Below, in pieces: positions 4,840 to 36,301 of a stretch of DNA of 39,386 nt. The notes below the pieces were generated by a model that did no database searches, was not told the DNA's origin, and saw nothing but the letters and a program-made list of their open reading frames with translations. A program made the position numbers and the translations under genes. The stretch is from the IMG/VR virus record IMGVR_UViG_642979322_000008. One strand, given 5' to 3'. Source of the stretch: a virus. Taxonomy: Duplodnaviria > Heunggongvirae > Uroviricota > Caudoviricetes. The number at the start of each line of letters is the position of its first letter. Within the stretch, counting starts at the first letter, position 1.

Positions 4840-5108
4840 GTAAAGTCGTACGCATTATTTTCGAATACAAGGAGCACGTTATCCATAAAAACGCTGATGG
4901 AACAGTGCGCATGGGGGTAAGTCTGGACATACGTTCAACCGGGATAAAGCAGAAAGGTGATGGACCCGCCATGATTTTTGGGGTGGTTATGCTCGCGGAA
5001 AGCAGAGACTTTGCTGAACTTGTGGCAATGAAAGCCAGTGCGCTCATGAAAGATATGAGCATGCGTTCCGGGGTTATTAAAGGTAATGAATTTAATCAGC
5101 AGGGGTAA
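4836..5108 (+). CDS. hypothetical early protein, paralog 1 (MSKVVRIIFEYK...)
   Basis: Start overlaps upstream stop; N-terminus near-identical to the next gene. Confidence 0.5.
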   Translation: MSKVVRIIFEYKEHVIHKNADGTVRMGVSLDIRSTGIKQKGDGPAMIFGVVMLAESRDFAELVAMKASALMKDMSMRSGVIKGNEFNQQG

Positions 5109-9799: not shown

Positions 9800-10225
9800 A
9801 TGGCAGAAACTCAGATGAGCATGTTTGGTGGTGACAGTGAGCAACTGCACGCCCTTATCGACCGCCTTGATGACATCCCTGATGATGTTCTCAAAAAGAA
9901 CTGGCCGCGGACCCTGTCAGAACTGGTTGAAGTCACCGGCGCAGAACTTCAGCGTCAGGGGATTGAGCCGGTACTGGCCGGTAAACTGGCACGCAAGGTG
10001 GCTGCGGCTCAGGCAGCCTATATGGGCGGACGGGGTTATTACCTGCCGGTCGGGGAATCTCTCTTTGCCGAGCTGCGAAACAATGAGATATTTTCGCGCT
10101 GGGACCGGGGCGAGAAAATTGAATCCCTTCGCCGCCATTACCGGATGTCAGAAACCCAGATTTATACCGTCATACGCGAACAGCGCCGTCTGCATCTGGC
10201 AAGAACGCAACCGCCACTTTTCTGA
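9800..10225 (+). CDS. Mor/C-family transcription activator (middle/late gene activator)
   Basis: 141-aa ORF with C-terminal HTH (ETQIYTVIREQRRL); architecture like Mu Mor and C; only one such gene found. Confidence 0.75.
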   Translation: MAETQMSMFGGDSEQLHALIDRLDDIPDDVLKKNWPRTLSELVEVTGAELQRQGIEPVLAGKLARKVAAAQAAYMGGRGYYLPVGESLFAELRNNEIFSRWDRGEKIESLRRHYRMSETQIYTVIREQRRLHLARTQPPLF

Positions 10226-10296
10226 TATTCCGCAAAGCCTGCCGCCTCTCCTTCACCGTTACGCTGACTCAGAGAACATCATGAGACAGCGTAACA

Positions 10297-18013: not shown

Positions 18014-18189
18014 TTGTTTAAGGTATGCAAATGCATTACCTTACCCCCTTCAGGCGCGTGTCGTGATTTTCTAACCTGTATTTAACGGGCTTTAAAATCT
18101 GCGTGAAGCGCCTTTGTATTTTTCCCCTGGAAGCACTTCCTGAAATCCCGCAAAACCCGCCCTGAAAATTCCCGGCCTATGCTGCCGGA

Positions 18190-20304: not shown

Positions 20305-20733
20305 ATGAATGAACATCACACTGTGGCAGCAACAGATGATTCAGGTCTTCAGGTCAGTGGTGACAATTCTGTCACGGTGCTGGCAGAAGTGCGTTGCAGT
20401 CGTTCGGCGTTTCGTCGTGCGGGGTTCCTGTTCACGCGTGGACGTCAGCAGGTTGAGGTCACCCCGGAGCAGCTTGCCCGACTGGAGGAGGAGCCATGCC
20501 TCACTGTGCGAATACTACAGACGTCTGCTGATGATGCGGGGAGCGTGGCGGGTGTGGTTCATGCAGTGGCCGGTACAGATTTAGCCGAAGCCGAAGCCGA
20601 AGCCGAAGCCGAAGCCGAAGCCGAAGCCGAAGCCGAAGCCGAAGCCGAAGCCGAAGCCGAAGCCGAAGCCGAAGCCGGACAGGATGCTCCCCGGAAAAAG
20701 ACCGGTAACAAAGCGGAACAGGCCCGTGCATGA
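20305..20733 (+). CDS. small head-region protein with (Ala-Glu)15 tract
   Basis: 142-aa ORF with GGAGG RBS; contains in-frame (GCCGAA)15. Confidence 0.55.
   Translation: MNEHHTVAATDDSGLQVSGDNSVTVLAEVRCSRSAFRRAGFLFTRGRQQVEVTPEQLARLEEEPCLTVRILQTSADDAGSVAGVVHAVAGTDLAEAEAEAEAEAEAEAEAEAEAEAEAEAEAEAGQDAPRKKTGNKAEQARA
20584..20673 (+). repeat. perfect hexanucleotide tandem repeat (GCCGAA)x15
   Basis: Seen directly: 15 uninterrupted GCCGAA units followed by GCCGGA. Confidence 0.95.
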
Positions 20734-29996: not shown

Positions 29997-31078
29997 TGCC
30001 TTATCAGCCCTTACCACTGGCGCAACTGATCACACAGACACAACAGGATATCAGCCAGCGCCTGCCCGGTTCGCAGCCGGGCGTGAATGAAACCACCCTG
30101 AATGCCATTGCGTATGCACTGGCGGGTCTGTCAGCACAGGAGCATGAACATCTGGCCTGGATCTCCCGGCAGATAATTCCGACAGAAGCTGATGAAGCCG
30201 AACTCCTGAAACACTGCGCATTCTGGGGTGTCATCCGTAAACCGGCTTCCCGCGCTGACGGACCGGTACAACTGATGCTGACCACGGATGCAGGGATCAC
30301 GGAAGGCGTACTCCTTCAGCGAAGCGATGGGGTTGTGTACCGCATCACCGGCTCTGCGACCGGAAAAGCCGGAACACTGAATGTTAATGTGGAGGCGGAA
30401 AGTGCGGGGCGCGCTGGAAATACCCCGACCGGAACCCGCCTGTCCTTTATCACGCCACAGGCGGGCATCAACCAGACAGCCACGGTCACCGGCACGGGAC
30501 TCACCGGTGGTGCGGATGTGGAAACGGTGCCGGAGTTGCTGTCCAGGCTGGTATTCCGGGTACAGAACCCGCCATCAGGGGGAACACAGTATGATTTTGA
30601 ACGCTGGGCACGGGAAGTACCGGGCGTGACGCGGGCATGGTGTAAGCCTGAATGGCCTGAGGCGGGTAGTGTTGGTGTGACTTTTGTTCAGGATAATAAC
30701 CCTGACATTTTCCCCGGAGAAGGTGATGTGAAGCGGGTGGCGGATTATATCCGCAGTCATGATGATCCGGCGACGGGCCAGCCCGTTGGTCAGCCACTTG
30801 GGCCGACAATCAGCGTGTTTAAGCTGACCAATAAGCCGGTGGCGTTTGAGATCAGGATTGTACCCAAAACGCCGGAAAATCAGGCTGCCGTAAAACAGGC
30901 ATTAACAGACCTGCTTTATAACGAATCGCGGCCGGGTGGACTTGTATTGCCTTCATCATTCTGGCGGGCTGTTGCAGGGGTGAAAGGACTGGAGGATTTT
31001 GAAGTTCGCAGCCCGCTGAAGTCCGTGATGGCCGGAGATACAGAGTTGCTGACCGTGGGGGAAATCACATGGCTGTAA
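29993..31078 (+). CDS. baseplate J-like protein (Mu gp47-like)
   Basis: 361-aa ORF, start overlapping upstream stop. Confidence 0.75.
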   Translation: MMPYQPLPLAQLITQTQQDISQRLPGSQPGVNETTLNAIAYALAGLSAQEHEHLAWISRQIIPTEADEAELLKHCAFWGVIRKPASRADGPVQLMLTTDAGITEGVLLQRSDGVVYRITGSATGKAGTLNVNVEAESAGRAGNTPTGTRLSFITPQAGINQTATVTGTGLTGGADVETVPELLSRLVFRVQNPPSGGTQYDFERWAREVPGVTRAWCKPEWPEAGSVGVTFVQDNNPDIFPGEGDVKRVADYIRSHDDPATGQPVGQPLGPTISVFKLTNKPVAFEIRIVPKTPENQAAVKQALTDLLYNESRPGGLVLPSSFWRAVAGVKGLEDFEVRSPLKSVMAGDTELLTVGEITWL

Positions 31079-31629
31079 CCCTGACCCCGCATCAGCGTGC
31101 CCTGTTGCAGTTGCTGCCTGACGGGCTGGCATGGGATAAGCGGCCGTCATCCGTTCTTGCGGCTTTGTGCCTGGGCCTCAGTCATTCCACGGAGCGTGTT
31201 TCCTGGACCGGTAACCAGATGCTGGCAGAACGTTTTCCTGATTCATCCCGTCTGCTGCTGGAAGACTGGGAGCGTTATCTGGGGTTACCGGAATGTGATA
31301 TGACCGGCGCAACCATTCAGGAGCGTCAGCGTTATGCCGGGAATAAATACCGGATGAAACCCTCTCTTAACCGTGAATTTTATATCCGGTTTGCGGCAGA
31401 GTTTGGTTATGAAATAGATATTCAGCCATCACCGGATTCACAGTGGGTCAGTATTGTCACGATTAACAGTGAAACCGGCTACCGGAATATGAATGTGCTG
31501 GATGATATTCTCACGCCGCTGCGTATTTATGAAGGCGGTGCGCTGGAATGTATTCTGAACCGTTATAAGCCTGCATGGCAGACGTTTATTTACGTATATG
31601 CAAACAGTCACGAAGAGGAGAATATTTAA
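31069..31629 (+). CDS. tail protein (Mu gp48-like)
   Basis: 186-aa ORF. Confidence 0.65.
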   Translation: MAVTLTPHQRALLQLLPDGLAWDKRPSSVLAALCLGLSHSTERVSWTGNQMLAERFPDSSRLLLEDWERYLGLPECDMTGATIQERQRYAGNKYRMKPSLNREFYIRFAAEFGYEIDIQPSPDSQWVSIVTINSETGYRNMNVLDDILTPLRIYEGGALECILNRYKPAWQTFIYVYANSHEEENI

Positions 31630-32540
31630 TGTTCCATGTTGATAATAATTCCGGCGTGGCGAATATGCCTGCGCTGGCACCGGCGCAGAGTAATACCACC
31701 ACCTGGTTTACCGAAGGTGACGGACAAAAAGGTATCAGCTGGATTGGTCAGGACTGGCTGAATATTCTCCAGGCCGAACTGCTGAATATTCTGGCTGAAG
31801 CCAGTATTCAGCCGGATAAGGCGCAGTTAAACCAGCTTACGCTGTCCATTAAAGCCATTATCGCTGCGAATGCCTTTTCCCGGAAAAACAACCTGAAAGA
31901 AATTGCTGATGCCGGTGCGGAAGCCCAGCGTCTTGCCCGTGGTTATCTTGGTCTTGGGGCGCTTGCCACAAAAAACAGTCTTGGTCCCGGTGACGTTAAT
32001 GCTCTGGCGAAGGATCAGAACCTTGCCGACCTGGAGAATGCGGGAACCGCCCGTAATAATCTGGATGTTTACAGCAAAAGCGAAGGTGATAACCGTTACC
32101 TGCGCAGGGAGCAGAACGGCGCAGACATTCCGGATAAAGGCGCTTTTATCGATAACGTTGGTTTACGGGAAACGGTAAATAAGGCTGCTGATGCCCTGCC
32201 ATCGGGTGGAACCGCCGTGGCAGCAAACAGACTCGCCACCCCAAGAAATATTAATGGTGTTCCTTTTGACGGAACGCTGGATATCAACATCACGTCAGGA
32301 ATGACGCAGTCAACCGCAGATGGCCGGTATGTACAGAATGTTCAGCTTGGAGCACAGAGCTATCATTCACCCGGAGGCAATGAAATGTCATGGAATTACA
32401 GCGCACCTTCCGGTTGTATGCTTTCCGGAATTAACGTGCAGGAAACCGGCTCCCGGTCTGCGGACAATATCGGTGGGGTCTATTATCGCCCGGTTCAGAT
32501 TTATATTAATAATGCCTGGAGAACGGTAAGTTCAGTGTAA
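31629..32540 (+). CDS. tail fibre protein; constant N-terminal part plus variable C-terminal part inside the invertible segment
   Basis: ATG 31629 (MFHVDNNSG...); the C-terminal ~125 aa lie downstream of the left crossover site and have a diverged inverted copy on the minus strand. Confidence 0.8.
   Translation: MFHVDNNSGVANMPALAPAQSNTTTWFTEGDGQKGISWIGQDWLNILQAELLNILAEASIQPDKAQLNQLTLSIKAIIAANAFSRKNNLKEIADAGAEAQRLARGYLGLGALATKNSLGPGDVNALAKDQNLADLENAGTARNNLDVYSKSEGDNRYLRREQNGADIPDKGAFIDNVGLRETVNKAADALPSGGTAVAANRLATPRNINGVPFDGTLDINITSGMTQSTADGRYVQNVQLGAQSYHSPGGNEMSWNYSAPSGCMLSGINVQETGSRSADNIGGVYYRPVQIYINNAWRTVSSV
32146..32171. repeat. left invertase crossover site (gix-like)
   Basis: TTATCGATAACGTTGGTTTACGGGAA; inverted partner at 33521-33546; shares GGTTTAC(A/G)GGAA core with Mu gix as recalled. 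Confidence 0.55.
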
Positions 32541-32574
32541 ACCACAGAAAAGGGTGCTGAATGCACCCTCTGAA

Positions 32575-33096
32575 TTATTCCGGTTTTTCCGGCCAGGGAA
32601 TCGCCTGGTAATGCCCCTCACTGGCAATATCATTAAAGTGCATTTCTTTAAGCTGTCGGATATACGCCATCCAGCGCGTCAGCTGTAATTTATTTTCATC
32701 GCTAATCATGTCCAGTTTTAATTCCGTTTTCCAGTCATCCACAGTTTCGTTGGCTTCCTGGAGCAGCGATGAGCGGCGCTTTTCAGCAACCGTCTTCCAG
32801 TTTACCGGCACCTTTGATATCAGGCCATCAGAAAACTGCCAGTTACCGTCAATATTCACACCTTCCGGCAGTTCGTCCACTTCAACAACAGTAAAACCTG
32901 CCGGATATAAAGCAGAGACATCTTCAGCAACAGAGCAGATAATACCCGTTACAGGCGAAATACAGAGTTTGTATTTCTTTGTGAAAAGCGGGATAGATTC
33001 ATAAAAATCCCTTCCGTCCTCACTCTGGAAATACTGAACATCCTCACCATAGGGTTTGTGTTCCGGGTAATATCGTTTTACGTTAATAAGCTCCAT
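32575..33096 (-). CDS. tail fibre assembly protein (Mu U/U'-like)
   Basis: ATG at 33096 preceded by AAGGTGA; 173 aa; inside the invertible segment. Confidence 0.7.
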   Translation of the reverse strand: MELINVKRYYPEHKPYGEDVQYFQSEDGRDFYESIPLFTKKYKLCISPVTGIICSVAEDVSALYPAGFTVVEVDELPEGVNIDGNWQFSDGLISKVPVNWKTVAEKRRSSLLQEANETVDDWKTELKLDMISDENKLQLTRWMAYIRQLKEMHFNDIASEGHYQAIPWPEKPE

Positions 33097-33175
33097 TATT
33101 TCACCTTGTTTTTGTTGAAAAGACAAAATCATCATATATTTATTCAGATAATCTGTTTTTTGAACTACTGCACTT

Positions 33176-33520
33176 TTATGCGCTGGAAGCTGTTTTCCAC
33201 GAACCATCTATCAGAAACTGAACAGGTCGATAATATGCGGTTACCGTTGCATTACCATCACCAGCGACATCAAGCCCTGTAAGTACGCATCCGTCAGGAA
33301 CCTCAAAAATATTATATTGCATTCCAATCGTTGACCTTGAACCTCTTCGAATGCTTTGAACATAACGTGAGTCAGCCACAGACTGCGTCATCCCCGATGT
33401 AATATTTATATCCTGCGTTCCGTCAAATGGGACACCATTAATATTTCTTGGAGTGGCGAGTTTATTCGCTGCAACAGCCGCTCCGTTCGATGGCAGGGCA
33501 TTCGCGGCCCTGTTTACAGT
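33176..33520 (-). CDS. alternative tail-fibre C-terminal cassette (Sv'-like), start-less
   Basis: Minus-strand frame reads GLRDTVNRAANALPSNGAAVAANKLATPRNINGVPFDGTQDINITSGMTQSVADSRYVQ..., a diverged copy of the forward tail-fibre C-terminal region; open up to the right crossover site. Confidence 0.6.
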   Translation of the reverse strand, partial: TVNRAANALPSNGAAVAANKLATPRNINGVPFDGTQDINITSGMTQSVADSRYVQSIRRGSRSTIGMQYNIFEVPDGCVLTGLDVAGDGNATVTAYYRPVQFLIDGSWKTASSA

Positions 33521-33546
33521 ATCCCGTAAACCGAAGGTTTCAGGGA
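33521..33546. repeat. right invertase crossover site (gix-like), inverted relative to 32146-32171
   Basis: ATCCCGTAAACCGAAGGTTTCAGGGA; reverse complement carries CGGTTTACGGGA as at the left site. Confidence 0.55.
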
Positions 33547-33601
33547 TGCCGTATATCTGCTTTAAAAGGCCTTTCCACCTCTTTTTAAGGAAGGTAAATA
33601 C

Positions 33602-34162
33602 ATGCTGATTGGCTATATACGCGTATCAACAAATGACCAGAACACAGGTTTACAAAGAAATGCGCTGGAATGTGCAGGATGTGAGCAGATTTTTGAAGAT
33701 AAAATGAGTGGTAAAACGACACAGCGGCCGGGACTGAAGCGGGCACTGAAGAAACTAAAACCCGGTGACACACTGATGGTCTGGAAACTGGACAGGCTGG
33801 GGCGCAGTATGCGCCACCTTGTTGCGCTGACAGATGAATTACAGCAACAGGGGATAAATTTTCGTAGTCTTACTGACAACATTGATACGTCAACCCCCAT
33901 GGGGCGCTTCTTTTTTCACATAATGGGTGCGCTGGCAGAAATGGAGCGTGAATTAATTGTCGAACGGACACGGGCTGGTCTTGCAGCTGCCCGTGAAAGG
34001 GGACGAACCGGCGGCAGACCCCGTCGTCTCACGCAGGAACAATACGAGCAGGTCGGGCGTTTACTGGCCGGGGGTGTCAGTCGAAGACAGGTGGCACTTA
34101 TTTTTGATATCGGCCTTTCAACCCTTTATCGTTATTATCCTGCGAGCGTTTCGGAAAAATAA
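33602..34162 (+). CDS. gin: serine-recombinase DNA invertase (Gin/Pin/Cin/Hin family)
   Basis: 186 aa; MLIGYIRVSTNDQ with catalytic Ser, RSLTDxIDTSxPMGRFFFHxMGALAEMERELIxERT and C-terminal HTH match Mu Gin almost throughout, as recalled. Confidence 0.93.
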   Translation: MLIGYIRVSTNDQNTGLQRNALECAGCEQIFEDKMSGKTTQRPGLKRALKKLKPGDTLMVWKLDRLGRSMRHLVALTDELQQQGINFRSLTDNIDTSTPMGRFFFHIMGALAEMERELIVERTRAGLAAARERGRTGGRPRRLTQEQYEQVGRLLAGGVSRRQVALIFDIGLSTLYRYYPASVSEK

Positions 34163-34261: not shown

Positions 34262-36301
34262 ATGACGTCCAAATGGGTTCAACTATCATCAATGCCCGGA
34301 AACTTTACTGTTAAAGTTTCCGGTGGTACAGCGGCATTTCTTGAGGCTCCCTTTCCTCCGGCCGAAACAAAAGGAGGAATGACATTTGCTGACTGTCTCA
34401 TCAGTTTTAATACACGGGATTGCCTGTGGGTAAGGCCAGTATCCGGTGATCCGAGTGTGGAAATTACCGGAGCGGGTATTGGTGCGGTCATTCCGTTAAG
34501 TGCTGATGTTGCCGGTACTGCTGAACCGTCAGACTGGGATAATGCTGAAACACATACCCGTCCGTCAGGAAATGAAACTGCTTCCAGCTCCCCTTCCTGG
34601 TATTACGTGGTGGTTCTTGCTGGTCAGTCAAACGGTATGGCTTACGGTGAAGGTCTGCCACTGCCGGAGACATATGACCGCCCCGAACCGCGTATTATGC
34701 AGTTAGCCCGTCGCAGTACAGTCACGCCGGGAGGTAAAGCCTGTCAGTATAACGACATCATTCTGGCCGACCACTGTCTGCATGATGTGCAGGATATGAG
34801 TGGAAAAAATCACCCGAAAGCGGATGTGGCTAAAGGGCAATATGGCACCGTGGGTCAGGGGCTTCACATTGCCAAAAAACTGCTGCCGTTTATTCCGGCA
34901 GATGCGGGGATTCTGCTGGTTCCCTGCTGCCGTGGTGGTTCTGCATTCACGGCGGGTGCTGACGGCACGTACAGTGACAGCACGGGTGCTTCAGAGGACT
35001 CAGCCCGCTGGGGTGTGGATAAGCCGCTGTATAAGGACTTAATCAGCCGGACAAAAGCGGCACTGGCGAAGAACCCGAAAAACCGCCTGCTTGCTGTGGT
35101 GTGGATGCAGGGCGAGTTTGATATTGATGCGAAGCCGACGGAGCATTCCGCGCTGTTTCTGGCGATGGTGGAAAAATTCCGCGCAGACCTGGCTGAACAG
35201 GCGGAACAGTGTACCGGTGGCAGTGCTGCTGGCGTTCCGTGGATTTGTGGCGATACCACGTATTTCTGGAAACAGAAAAATGAACCGGCATACCAGGCAA
35301 TCTATGGCGGCTACAAAAACAAAACAGATAAAAACATTCATTTCGTTCCATTAATGACAGATGAAAATGACGCGAATGTACCCACCAACAATCCGGCAGA
35401 AGACCCGGATATTGAATCCATTGGTTATTACGGCTCAACGTGGCGTAACAGTGCCGCCACCTGGACATCTGCGGACCGGGCCAGCCATTTCAGTTCATGG
35501 GCACGTCGTGGGATTATTTCCGACCGTCTGGCCACGGCAGTTCTGACTCATGCGGGGCGAACCACAGTAAAAGCCGATGTTCCATCTTCTGAAACTGAAG
35601 CACCAGTGCCGTCACCTTCAGAAACTGAAGCAGTAACCACAACACTGCTGTCTTATCGTGTCAGTGAGTCAGAAGGAAATCTGAAAGCCCAGGGCTGGGA
35701 GCCGGCTGGCGGTAAAGCTGAAATTATCAGTGATGCAGGAGGCACAGGTGGTAAGGCAATGAAACTGACCAAGGAAACAGGTAAATCATCCTGGTATCTG
35801 GATCATGATGCCGGTACTGGTGCTGAACTGCTGAAAAATGGTGGTTTAATCAGTTGTCGTTTTAAAGTACCTGGCGACCTGGTGGCAAACCAGTATGTCA
35901 TGGGGCTTTACTGGCCGGTTTCCTCTCTGCCGCAGGGTGTCACCCTGACAGGGGATGCAGGGAATAATCTGCTGGCATCGTTCTACATCCAGACAGACGC
36001 AAAAGACCTGAATGTGATGTACCACAATGCAAAAGTGGCAACAAATAACCAGAAACTGGGAACCTTTGGTGCATTTGATAATGAATGGCATACGCTGGCC
36101 TTCCGTTTTGCAGGAAATAACAGCCTTCAGGTTATTCCGGTTATTGATGGTCAGGATGGTGCCGCGTTTACCCTGACGCAGTCACCAGTAGGAACTTTCC
36201 CGGTGGACAAACTCCGCGTAACGGATATCACAAAAAATGCAACTTACCCGGTGCTGATTGACAGCATTGTGGTGGAAGTGAAAAAAGCGGTAACAGAATA
36301 A
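34262..36301 (+). CDS. SGNH/SASA-family carbohydrate O-acetylesterase-like protein (prophage NanS-p-like) with additional N- and C-terminal domains
   Basis: 679 aa; GQSN motif (VVVLAGQSNGMAYGEG) typical of sialate O-acetylesterase-type SGNH hydrolases; Ser/Thr/Pro/Glu linker (SETEAPVPSPSETEA) before a C-terminal beta-rich domain. Confidence 0.55.
   Translation: MTSKWVQLSSMPGNFTVKVSGGTAAFLEAPFPPAETKGGMTFADCLISFNTRDCLWVRPVSGDPSVEITGAGIGAVIPLSADVAGTAEPSDWDNAETHTRPSGNETASSSPSWYYVVVLAGQSNGMAYGEGLPLPETYDRPEPRIMQLARRSTVTPGGKACQYNDIILADHCLHDVQDMSGKNHPKADVAKGQYGTVGQGLHIAKKLLPFIPADAGILLVPCCRGGSAFTAGADGTYSDSTGASEDSARWGVDKPLYKDLISRTKAALAKNPKNRLLAVVWMQGEFDIDAKPTEHSALFLAMVEKFRADLAEQAEQCTGGSAAGVPWICGDTTYFWKQKNEPAYQAIYGGYKNKTDKNIHFVPLMTDENDANVPTNNPAEDPDIESIGYYGSTWRNSAATWTSADRASHFSSWARRGIISDRLATAVLTHAGRTTVKADVPSSETEAPVPSPSETEAVTTTLLSYRVSESEGNLKAQGWEPAGGKAEIISDAGGTGGKAMKLTKETGKSSWYLDHDAGTGAELLKNGGLISCRFKVPGDLVANQYVMGLYWPVSSLPQGVTLTGDAGNNLLASFYIQTDAKDLNVMYHNAKVATNNQKLGTFGAFDNEWHTLAFRFAGNNSLQVIPVIDGQDGAAFTLTQSPVGTFPVDKLRVTDITKNATYPVLIDSIVVEVKKAVTE

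Follow-up and report, generated by a model that had tools for sequence, protein, structure and literature searches.

Here, we report that a Mu-like prophage of Escherichia coli carries an invertible tail-fibre segment with two alternative fibre tips, Sv and Sv', and only one tail-fibre assembly (chaperone) gene, tfa, which in the present orientation lies antisense to the expressed tip Sv. Judging from sequence comparison, this one chaperone may serve both tips and be made independently of the orientation of the segment, a reading to which we give a probability of about 0.55. The stretch of DNA analysed, called the window in what follows, is the 39,386-nt IMG/VR record IMGVR_UViG_642979322_000008 (Caudoviricetes), a complete Mu-like prophage of enterohaemorrhagic E. 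coli (EHEC) of the Sp18 type. The evidence comes from the association of Tfa with fibre tips in related loci, from relatives fixed with tfa antisense to the fibre gene, and from the orientations found in sequenced genomes.

A compact invertible segment with a single assembly gene

The features of the segment and its invertase are as follows.

31629-32540, plus strand: tail fibre gene S, 303 residues
31629-32159, plus strand: constant N-terminal part of S, 177 residues, outside the segment up to the crossover
32160-32540, plus strand: Sv, expressed variable C-terminus, 126 residues, a 50-residue linker followed by a receptor-binding tip of ~75 residues
32549-32571, minus strand: hairpin with a T-run on the minus strand only (terminator scan and sequence)
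32575-33096, minus strand: tfa, the single tail-fibre assembly (chaperone) gene, 173 residues, WP_000420351 (PGAP)
33097-33175, minus strand: spacer from the Sv' stop to the tfa start, 79 nt, 74.7% A+T, candidate position of an orientation-independent promoter
33176-33532, minus strand: Sv', silent alternative C-terminus, 118 residues, without a start codon
32146-32171, plus strand: left gix-like site, TTATCGATAACG - TT - GGTTTACGGGAA, core at 32158-32159
33521-33547, minus strand: right gix-like site, reverse complement ATCCCTGAAACC - TTC - GGTTTACGGGAT (GAA at 33533-33535 on the plus strand)
33602-34162, plus strand: Gin-type serine DNA invertase, 186 residues (Pfam Resolvase, E=1.4e-51; HTH_7, E=1.7e-14)

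The invertible segment spans 32146-33547 (1,402 bp) between inverted gix-like sites, in line with the initial annotation, which had proposed a segment of ~1.4 kb so bounded; both sites were located, the right one being aberrant. The arms of the inverted repeat (32151-32335 and 33357-33541) are 185 nt long and 77% complementary, encode the ~50-residue linker that both cassettes have in common, and each carry a gix-like site at the outer end. The left site is the sole match in the window to the Gin/Hin-type consensus (expected number 0, from 100 shuffles) and agrees by eye with Mu gix at 21 of 26 positions, while the right site has both half-sites with a spacer of 3 nt instead of 2, i.e., 27 bp in total. 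Over 181 residues, the invertase shares 75% identity with Mu Gin, and it conserves the serine-containing N-terminal motif YIRVSTNDQN, and the first 240 nt of its gene align without gaps to Mu gin with many identical positions. In Mu, this 5' stretch of the gene contains a Fis-dependent recombinational enhancer. The invertase, the gix-like sites (of which the right one is irregular in the window) and the inversion observed in nature (see below) place the system in the Gin/Pin family.

Residues 1-198 of S align with residues 1-191 of Mu S (PDB 5YVQ_A, E=4e-49; 46% identity), and in Sv as well as in Sv' the final ~75 residues align with the tip domain of the same protein (about residues 435-504); the fibre would in effect be Mu S minus its ~245-residue middle part. 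The Sv tip shares 56-60% identity with the tips of SfMu_52 and P2-like H proteins. Sv' is 57% identical to Sv overall, and its tip only ~40% identical to related tips. As in Mu, the constant N-terminus lies outside the segment and the opposite-strand C-termini are fused to it in frame: this holds for S-Sv and for the predicted S-Sv' fusion, the latter being annotated intact in flipped genomes (295 residues, WP_032213164).

Tfa is a Caudo_TAP protein (PF02413, E=1.9e-18, 67 bits against a cut-off of 22; phrog_136, E=1e-57) that aligns with Mu U (PDB 5YVQ_B, E=2e-15), and its gene has the orientation of Sv', which makes it antisense to Sv. The arrangement described in the initial annotation, i.e., the current fibre C-terminus on the plus strand and a diverged alternative cassette followed by a single assembly gene on the minus strand, is what mapping of Sv, Sv' and tfa gave, and the expressed tip indeed has no co-oriented assembly gene downstream, only tfa on the opposite strand. 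A second assembly gene on the plus strand would have overturned that description. None was found: tblastn with the window Tfa, Mu U, Mu U' and P2-like G hit one region only in the whole window, and the three plus-strand open reading frames inside the segment that were considered as candidates (32554-32688, 32708-33004 and 33058-33282) had no PHROG match. The stop codons of Sv and tfa are 34 nt apart, the interval containing the hairpin and no gene remnant. An assembly gene of its own, co-oriented with it, for each C-terminus is the Mu-type arrangement, correctly given in the earlier description as two genes, one per orientation, and seen in Mu and also in SfMu and e14; here there is one Caudo_TAP gene, beside Sv'. 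We also considered a nested inversion flipping tfa alone through a 44-nt, 70% inverted repeat of the 3' ends of the tips (32481-32524 and 33192-33235) and rejected it, as there is no gix-like sequence there; tfa is, moreover, never co-oriented with an Sv-type tip in ~30 family loci, which also rules against such a nested inversion.

Pairing of the chaperone with fibre tips in relatives

We mapped 80 IMG/VR loci encoding relatives of Tfa. In every Mu-like member mapped, except gin-less derivatives, the layout beside gin consists of an orphan tip and, opposed to it, tfa with a linked tip. By tip-tfa spacer and linked tip, these members form three classes, one with Tfa 98-100% identical to that of the window and two with Tfa at 61-64%. 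Identity of the linked tips is lowest at 33%, to the Mu S tip, and highest at 100%, to Sv'; the orphan tips are 42-100% identical to Sv. Since the one-tfa layout is kept across diverged relatives (Tfa 61-64% identical, tips 33-93% identical), it is neither a chance deletion nor a recent accident.

This bears on the rival explanation of simple decay, by which a defective prophage lost its second tfa through deletion and the layout is without functional meaning. EHEC prophages are often defective, and relatives carry scars of cassette exchange in the form of vestigial tip ends after the tip stop codon. However, the same layout recurs in three classes with diverged tips, spacers and Tfa proteins, and in both orientations, all genes are intact, the stops of Sv and tfa meet cleanly at the shared hairpin, and prophage Sp18 of O157:H7 Sakai has been judged intact, its DNA being efficiently packaged (PMC2669165); we consider simple decay the least probable of the explanations discussed here. 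The scars are found in the class-2 spacers of L027, L029, L030 (about 4874-5000) and L017, where the stop of the linked tip is followed by the vestigial end of another tip (ending in LINGSWRTAGSA before a stop codon); they result from replacement of the cassette by recombination.

Outside the Mu-like group, ~48 phage loci encode the same Tfa subfamily (53-59% identical); in them a co-oriented tip precedes tfa at a median distance of ~17 nt, and these tips have a median identity of 62% to Sv and 36% to Sv'. For Sv-like tips in SfMu and P2-like phages, tfa is always the next gene. By association, the window Tfa thus seems to be the natural partner of Sv, the tip on the opposite strand, and the regular pairing of Sv-like tips with tfa suggests that Sv-type tips are normally not chaperone-free.

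A gin-less lineage of seven loci (L019-L024 and L028), from at least six genomes, lacks gin and nearly all of Sv' and shares one deletion junction. The gene order there is S-Sv, convergent tfa and the DUF6645 gene that in the window follows the invertase, and a decayed remnant of ~100 nt of the Sv' end stays. tfa is intact in all three haplotypes, with a ratio of nonsynonymous to synonymous substitution rates (dN/dS) of 0.10-0.18. Both locked kinds of phage, i.e., the gin-less lineage and the phages with a 1-bp insertion in the core of the right site (the +1 allele, described below), are fixed with tfa antisense to S; as they are apparently viable, either tfa is expressed on its own or Sv needs none.

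The latter would mean that Sv folds without a chaperone and that tfa serves Sv' only, co-transcribed with S-Sv' when the segment is flipped. Such a division of labour would agree with the finding that, in all family members examined, tfa points the same way as Sv' or its counterpart, with our failure to detect an independent tfa promoter, and with the hairpin and T-run that close the Sv'-tfa unit like a normal operon end. It is at odds with the Sv-like tips elsewhere, which always have tfa next to them, specifically of the window Tfa subfamily, and with the gin-less lineage, which is unable to co-transcribe tfa with S and is without Sv', yet has kept tfa intact. In the recombinant locus L017, moreover, a window-type Tfa (98% identical) stands beside a quite different co-oriented tip, with the class-2 linked tip and spacer, so Tfa is not tied to Sv'. 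We regard a chaperone-free Sv as unlikely. Of the two outcomes offered in the initial annotation, a chaperone shared by both variants or chaperone-less fibres in the present orientation, the evidence from Tfa-tip associations and gin-less loci favours the first over the second.

Tfa might also be supplied in trans, in the present orientation, by other resident prophages: lambdoid and P2-like prophages are numerous in EHEC genomes, the C-terminal domain is conserved among Tfa proteins, and complementation between prophages is documented in O157 Sakai (PMC2669165). Against this, Mu-type lytic growth would not normally induce the late genes of other prophages, relatives of the prophage are spread over many different host backgrounds, and the intact antisense tfa of the gin-less relatives is left unexplained, all of which makes supply in trans rather improbable in our opinion.

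Inversion in nature and a probable lock in the window copy

The left junction was inverted in silico and searched in 5,426 complete E. coli genomes at a threshold of at least 95% identity. The inverted junction is present in 15 of them, three at 100%, and the junction of the present orientation in about 171. Four flipped loci were fetched. Their proteins are the same, and the point of exchange lies within the cores of the two sites, falling exactly at the core of the left site. Among gin-bearing IMG/VR relatives, 18 are in the present orientation and seven are flipped, so that the present orientation accounts for about 90% of complete-genome copies and 72% in IMG/VR. Inversion does occur in the Sp18-type family, most copies having tfa antisense to the fibre gene. 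One IMG genome (2617271340) contains two related Mu-like prophages, L016 and L076, whose segments are in opposite orientations.

The core of the right site sets the window copy apart. Like Mu, nearly all relatives have TC as the core of each site, and in one sub-lineage, to which Sakai belongs, both cores are TT; the right site is a regular 26-bp site with a 2-nt core in Sakai Sp18 and in all ~40 related loci. In the window the left core is TT and the right one reads TTC, a 1-bp insertion that is derived relative to Sakai, and its two cores do not match in any register, compared with TC/TC or TT/TT in the relatives. The exact 81-nt +1 allele occurs in 36 complete genomes, all in the present orientation. 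A further 122 genomes of the same orientation fall in the 95-99% identity band, and 36 of 36 sampled rows at 98.8% proved to be the regular 80-nt version. No genome searched has the extra base at either junction of a flipped segment. The genomes with the +1 allele comprise at least four serogroups and many insertion sites, the insertion site of the window itself being present in only three genomes.

Serine invertases cut with a 2-bp stagger at the centre of the site. In the related Hin system, changing one base in the core of just one site is enough to prevent ligation in the inverted orientation (PMC4817059). If recombination took place at the TT of the right site that adjoins the outer half-site, the extra C would enter S and the fibre would be truncated after about 20 out-of-frame codons. 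Given the unmatched cores and the count of 36 genomes in the present orientation versus none flipped, the window copy probably no longer inverts, i.e., it is probably locked, or nearly so, in the present orientation. The possibility raised at the outset, that the segment never inverts, is thereby answered in two parts: it does not apply to the family, in which near-identical prophages occur in both orientations, and it may well apply to the window allele.

The orientation counts also speak to the idea of the present orientation as a non-productive 'off' state, in which particles have no fibres or misfolded ones and only the flipped phage is infectious. This idea would be in keeping with the lack of a co-oriented chaperone and of a detectable promoter. 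It conflicts with the predominance of the present orientation, with the fixation of both locked variants in it, the +1 allele having spread across serogroups and insertion sites, and with the efficient packaging of Sp18 DNA (PMC2669165). We rate it a shade below supply in trans.

How the single chaperone might be expressed

We propose that the segment is the equivalent of the Mu G segment and acts as a minimal host-range switch of the Sp18-type prophage. The Gin-type invertase would recombine the two inverted 26-bp gix-like sites and thereby exchange the last ~120 residues of the fibre, Sv versus Sv', which are homologous but diverged tips of the Mu S type. The single Tfa would fold both tips, whichever way the segment is oriented, and transcription of tfa would start at a promoter of its own, either within the A+T-rich spacer or upstream of it. 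With a shared Tfa, the present orientation, the commonest in nature, should yield functional fibres, and the 1-bp insertion in the right core would lock the window copy in it.

The spacer between Sv' and tfa is conspicuous for its composition (74.7% A+T, compared with 46.5% for the window) and its length: the gap between tip and tfa is 60-125 nt in the Sp18-type family, ~17 nt (median) in the non-invertible relatives and 2-3 nt in Mu. A spacer this long and A+T-rich resembles an internal promoter region, and tfa has a Shine-Dalgarno sequence of its own (AAGGTG). The best promoter candidate for tfa found by eye is TATGAT with a poor -35 element. In the gin-less locus L019, ATGATA-17-TATAAT is found on the tfa strand within the vestigial tip, 125-175 nt upstream of tfa, although the number of such hits is not above chance. 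In the tip remnant of the gin-less loci, TATAAT preceded by A(T/C)GATA at a spacing of 17 nt is conserved in three haplotypes (its position being given as about 314 nt upstream of tfa). Upstream of tfa in class-2 and class-3 relatives, our search for a sigma-70 promoter gave nothing convincing. The hairpin between the stops of Sv and tfa looks terminator-like for the Sv'-tfa unit and would not stop read-through from Sv.

Late transcription was considered as well. The four late promoters of Mu share CATAACCCC. In the window, an 18-nt motif, CTGAWATYCCGCAAARCC, occurs on the plus strand at 10222-10239 and 18140-18157, just upstream of the lysis gene and of the protease/scaffold gene, the positions of Mu Plys and PI, and is probably the site of the late activator of this phage, unlike the Mu motif. 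Equivalents of Mu PP and Pmom were not found in the window phage, so the motif is poorly defined.

Several points weigh against a shared, independently expressed chaperone and against parts of the model built on it. A scan of the minus strand from 33546 to 33097 gave no sigma-70-like promoter, and no strict or relaxed match to the late-promoter motif lies upstream of tfa. In the gin-less lineage, synonymous divergence (dS) of tfa is 0.2-0.4, apparently much greater than the divergence of the adjacent non-coding DNA (by eye), so tfa alleles were brought in by recombination, which confounds the test, and purifying selection on tfa after the loss of gin is not cleanly measured. As for the lock, the difference in flipped copies between the +1 allele (0 of 36) and the others (15 of 137) gives a one-sided Fisher p=0.025 for genomes that are related and not independent, and the effect ascribed to a 3-nt spacer in a Gin-type site is deduced from the mechanics of serine invertases.

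Another role for inversion, quite unlikely in our view, would be to set, besides the tip sequence, whether abundant Tfa is co-expressed with the fibre at all. In Mu, Tfa is said (North et al. 2019) to stay bound to the fibre tip, and PDB 5YVQ contains fibre and Tfa chains together. If this is so, one orientation could give an Sv' fibre capped with Tfa and the other an Sv fibre that is bare or poor in Tfa; the chaperone would then be part of the host-range decision, and the locked variants would represent a commitment to the bare-tip mode.

Relation to known systems

Invertible tail-fibre segments are textbook cases of programmed host-range switching, and in the classical examples each tip has its own chaperone. 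The closest parallel is the G segment of Mu (also of SfMu and D108), with which the window shares the order gp48 - S - [segment] - gin ... com/mom, the constant N-terminus of S outside the segment, the homologous invertase, the tip domain of Mu S, a chaperone homologous to U/U', and gix-like sites with the half-site GGTTTAC(A/G)GGAA, the TC core of Mu being found in relatives of the window. It differs from Mu in the length of the segment (1.4 kb vs ~3.06 kb) and of the variable parts (~120 residues vs ~320-335, the middle of the Mu fibre being absent), in having one tfa instead of two (U and U'), in inverted repeats of 185 nt at 77% instead of 34 bp, in the 79-nt A+T-rich spacer before tfa where Mu has 2-3 nt, and in an esterase-like gene (DUF6645), absent from Mu, that separates the invertase gene from com/mom. 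The P segment of e14, a cryptic prophage of E. coli K-12, with its invertase PinE, also has a short fibre gene after a YmfQ-family gene, a compact segment and an adjacent Pin/Gin-type invertase, but two convergent tfa genes, tfaP in one cassette and tfaE in the other. The one-chaperone segment is likewise unlike that of P1. The fibre H and chaperone G of P2-like phages (e.g. phage D8 and fiAA91-ss) have Sv-like tips (47-57% identical to Sv) with a Caudo_TAP chaperone directly downstream; they are not invertible, and the chaperone is always co-oriented with the tip and tightly coupled to it.

In a quick survey, other Gin-type fibre segments mostly had two convergent tfa genes, and a scan of the genome-contig collection with the window Tfa returned no confirmed relative. 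Three P2-like loci, L155, L147 and L168, were considered as one-tfa parallels and rejected: they have one Caudo_TAP gene but also a phrog_5400 open reading frame in the other cassette. In L155 (4249-5946), as in the other two, a Gin-type segment of ~1.65 kb with 27-nt inverted repeats carries the Caudo_TAP gene co-oriented with the expressed tip, and the other strand has an alternative tip followed by this 90-residue frame, whose function is unknown and which possibly encodes a different accessory or chaperone protein. In L150 (3812-5903), a repeat of ~235 nt is present three times (one forward and two inverted copies, 86-92% identical) upstream of a Gin-type invertase, which suggests a multi-cassette fibre switch as in p15B Min.

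The element itself is already known: the segment is the invertible host-specificity region of Sp18, noted by Asadulghani et al. (PMC2669165). In a non-exhaustive literature search we found no discussion of the single chaperone, of gin-less derivatives or of the +1 site. What is new here is the pairing of this Tfa subfamily with Sv-like tips, the gin-less lineage with an intact antisense tfa, and the +1 insertion in the right core.

Element, host and neighbouring genes

The window and prophage Sp18 of O157:H7 Sakai are 99.98% identical, and the 2.6 kb studied here are 100% identical to prophages in O157:H7, O26, O103 and O145:H28 genomes. The window prophage is inserted in fbpC, an insertion common to only three O157:H7 genomes, and Sakai Sp18 in sorM. 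The fibre, tfa, Sv' and invertase genes are the same in Sakai (ECs_4989-4992), whereas the right site there has a normal 2-nt TT core, compared with TTC in the window. The only length differences between the two are this 1-bp insertion and a repeat region, a perfect (AGCCGA) x 15.8 tandem repeat at 20583-20677 (plus strand), in frame in the open reading frame 20305-20733 (a gene of the head-tail connector region), which is 42 nt (7 units) longer in the window than in Sakai Sp18. The genes flanking the fibre switch are as follows.

31069-31629, plus strand: gp48/YmfQ-like baseplate wedge gene, directly 5' of the fibre gene (Pfam Phage_Mu_Gp48, E=2e-22; PGAP 'YmfQ family protein')
34262-36301, plus strand: DUF6645/esterase-like gene
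downstream of the DUF6645/esterase-like gene, plus strand: com and mom

The 679-residue product of the gene at 34262-36301, directly 3' of the invertase gene, has Pfam SASA (sialate-O-acetylesterase-like) and DUF6645 matches and belongs to phrog_143 (unknown function). The gene is kept at this post-invertase position in all family members, adjoins tfa in the gin-less derivatives and is without counterpart in Mu; its product might be a virion-associated receptor-modifying enzyme or a moron. Please note that in the identical prophage of E2865, PGAP annotates a 'frameshifted hypothetical protein' at 33402-33588 (plus strand), antisense to the Sv' linker and spanning the right gix site, which looks like an annotation artefact of the inverted repeat and no gene.

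Implications

A single chaperone gene lying antisense in the commonest orientation turns the expression and specificity of tail-fibre chaperones into a testable question, for which the locked variants (deletion of gin and Sv', and the 1-bp core insertion) are ready-made genetic material. If one Tfa does fold tips that are only ~40% identical, this would matter for attempts to engineer phage host range through tip swapping. The element is present in major Shiga-toxin-producing E. coli lineages (O157, O26, O103, O111 and O145) and transposes like Mu, so its infectivity and host range matter for the genome plasticity of these pathogens.

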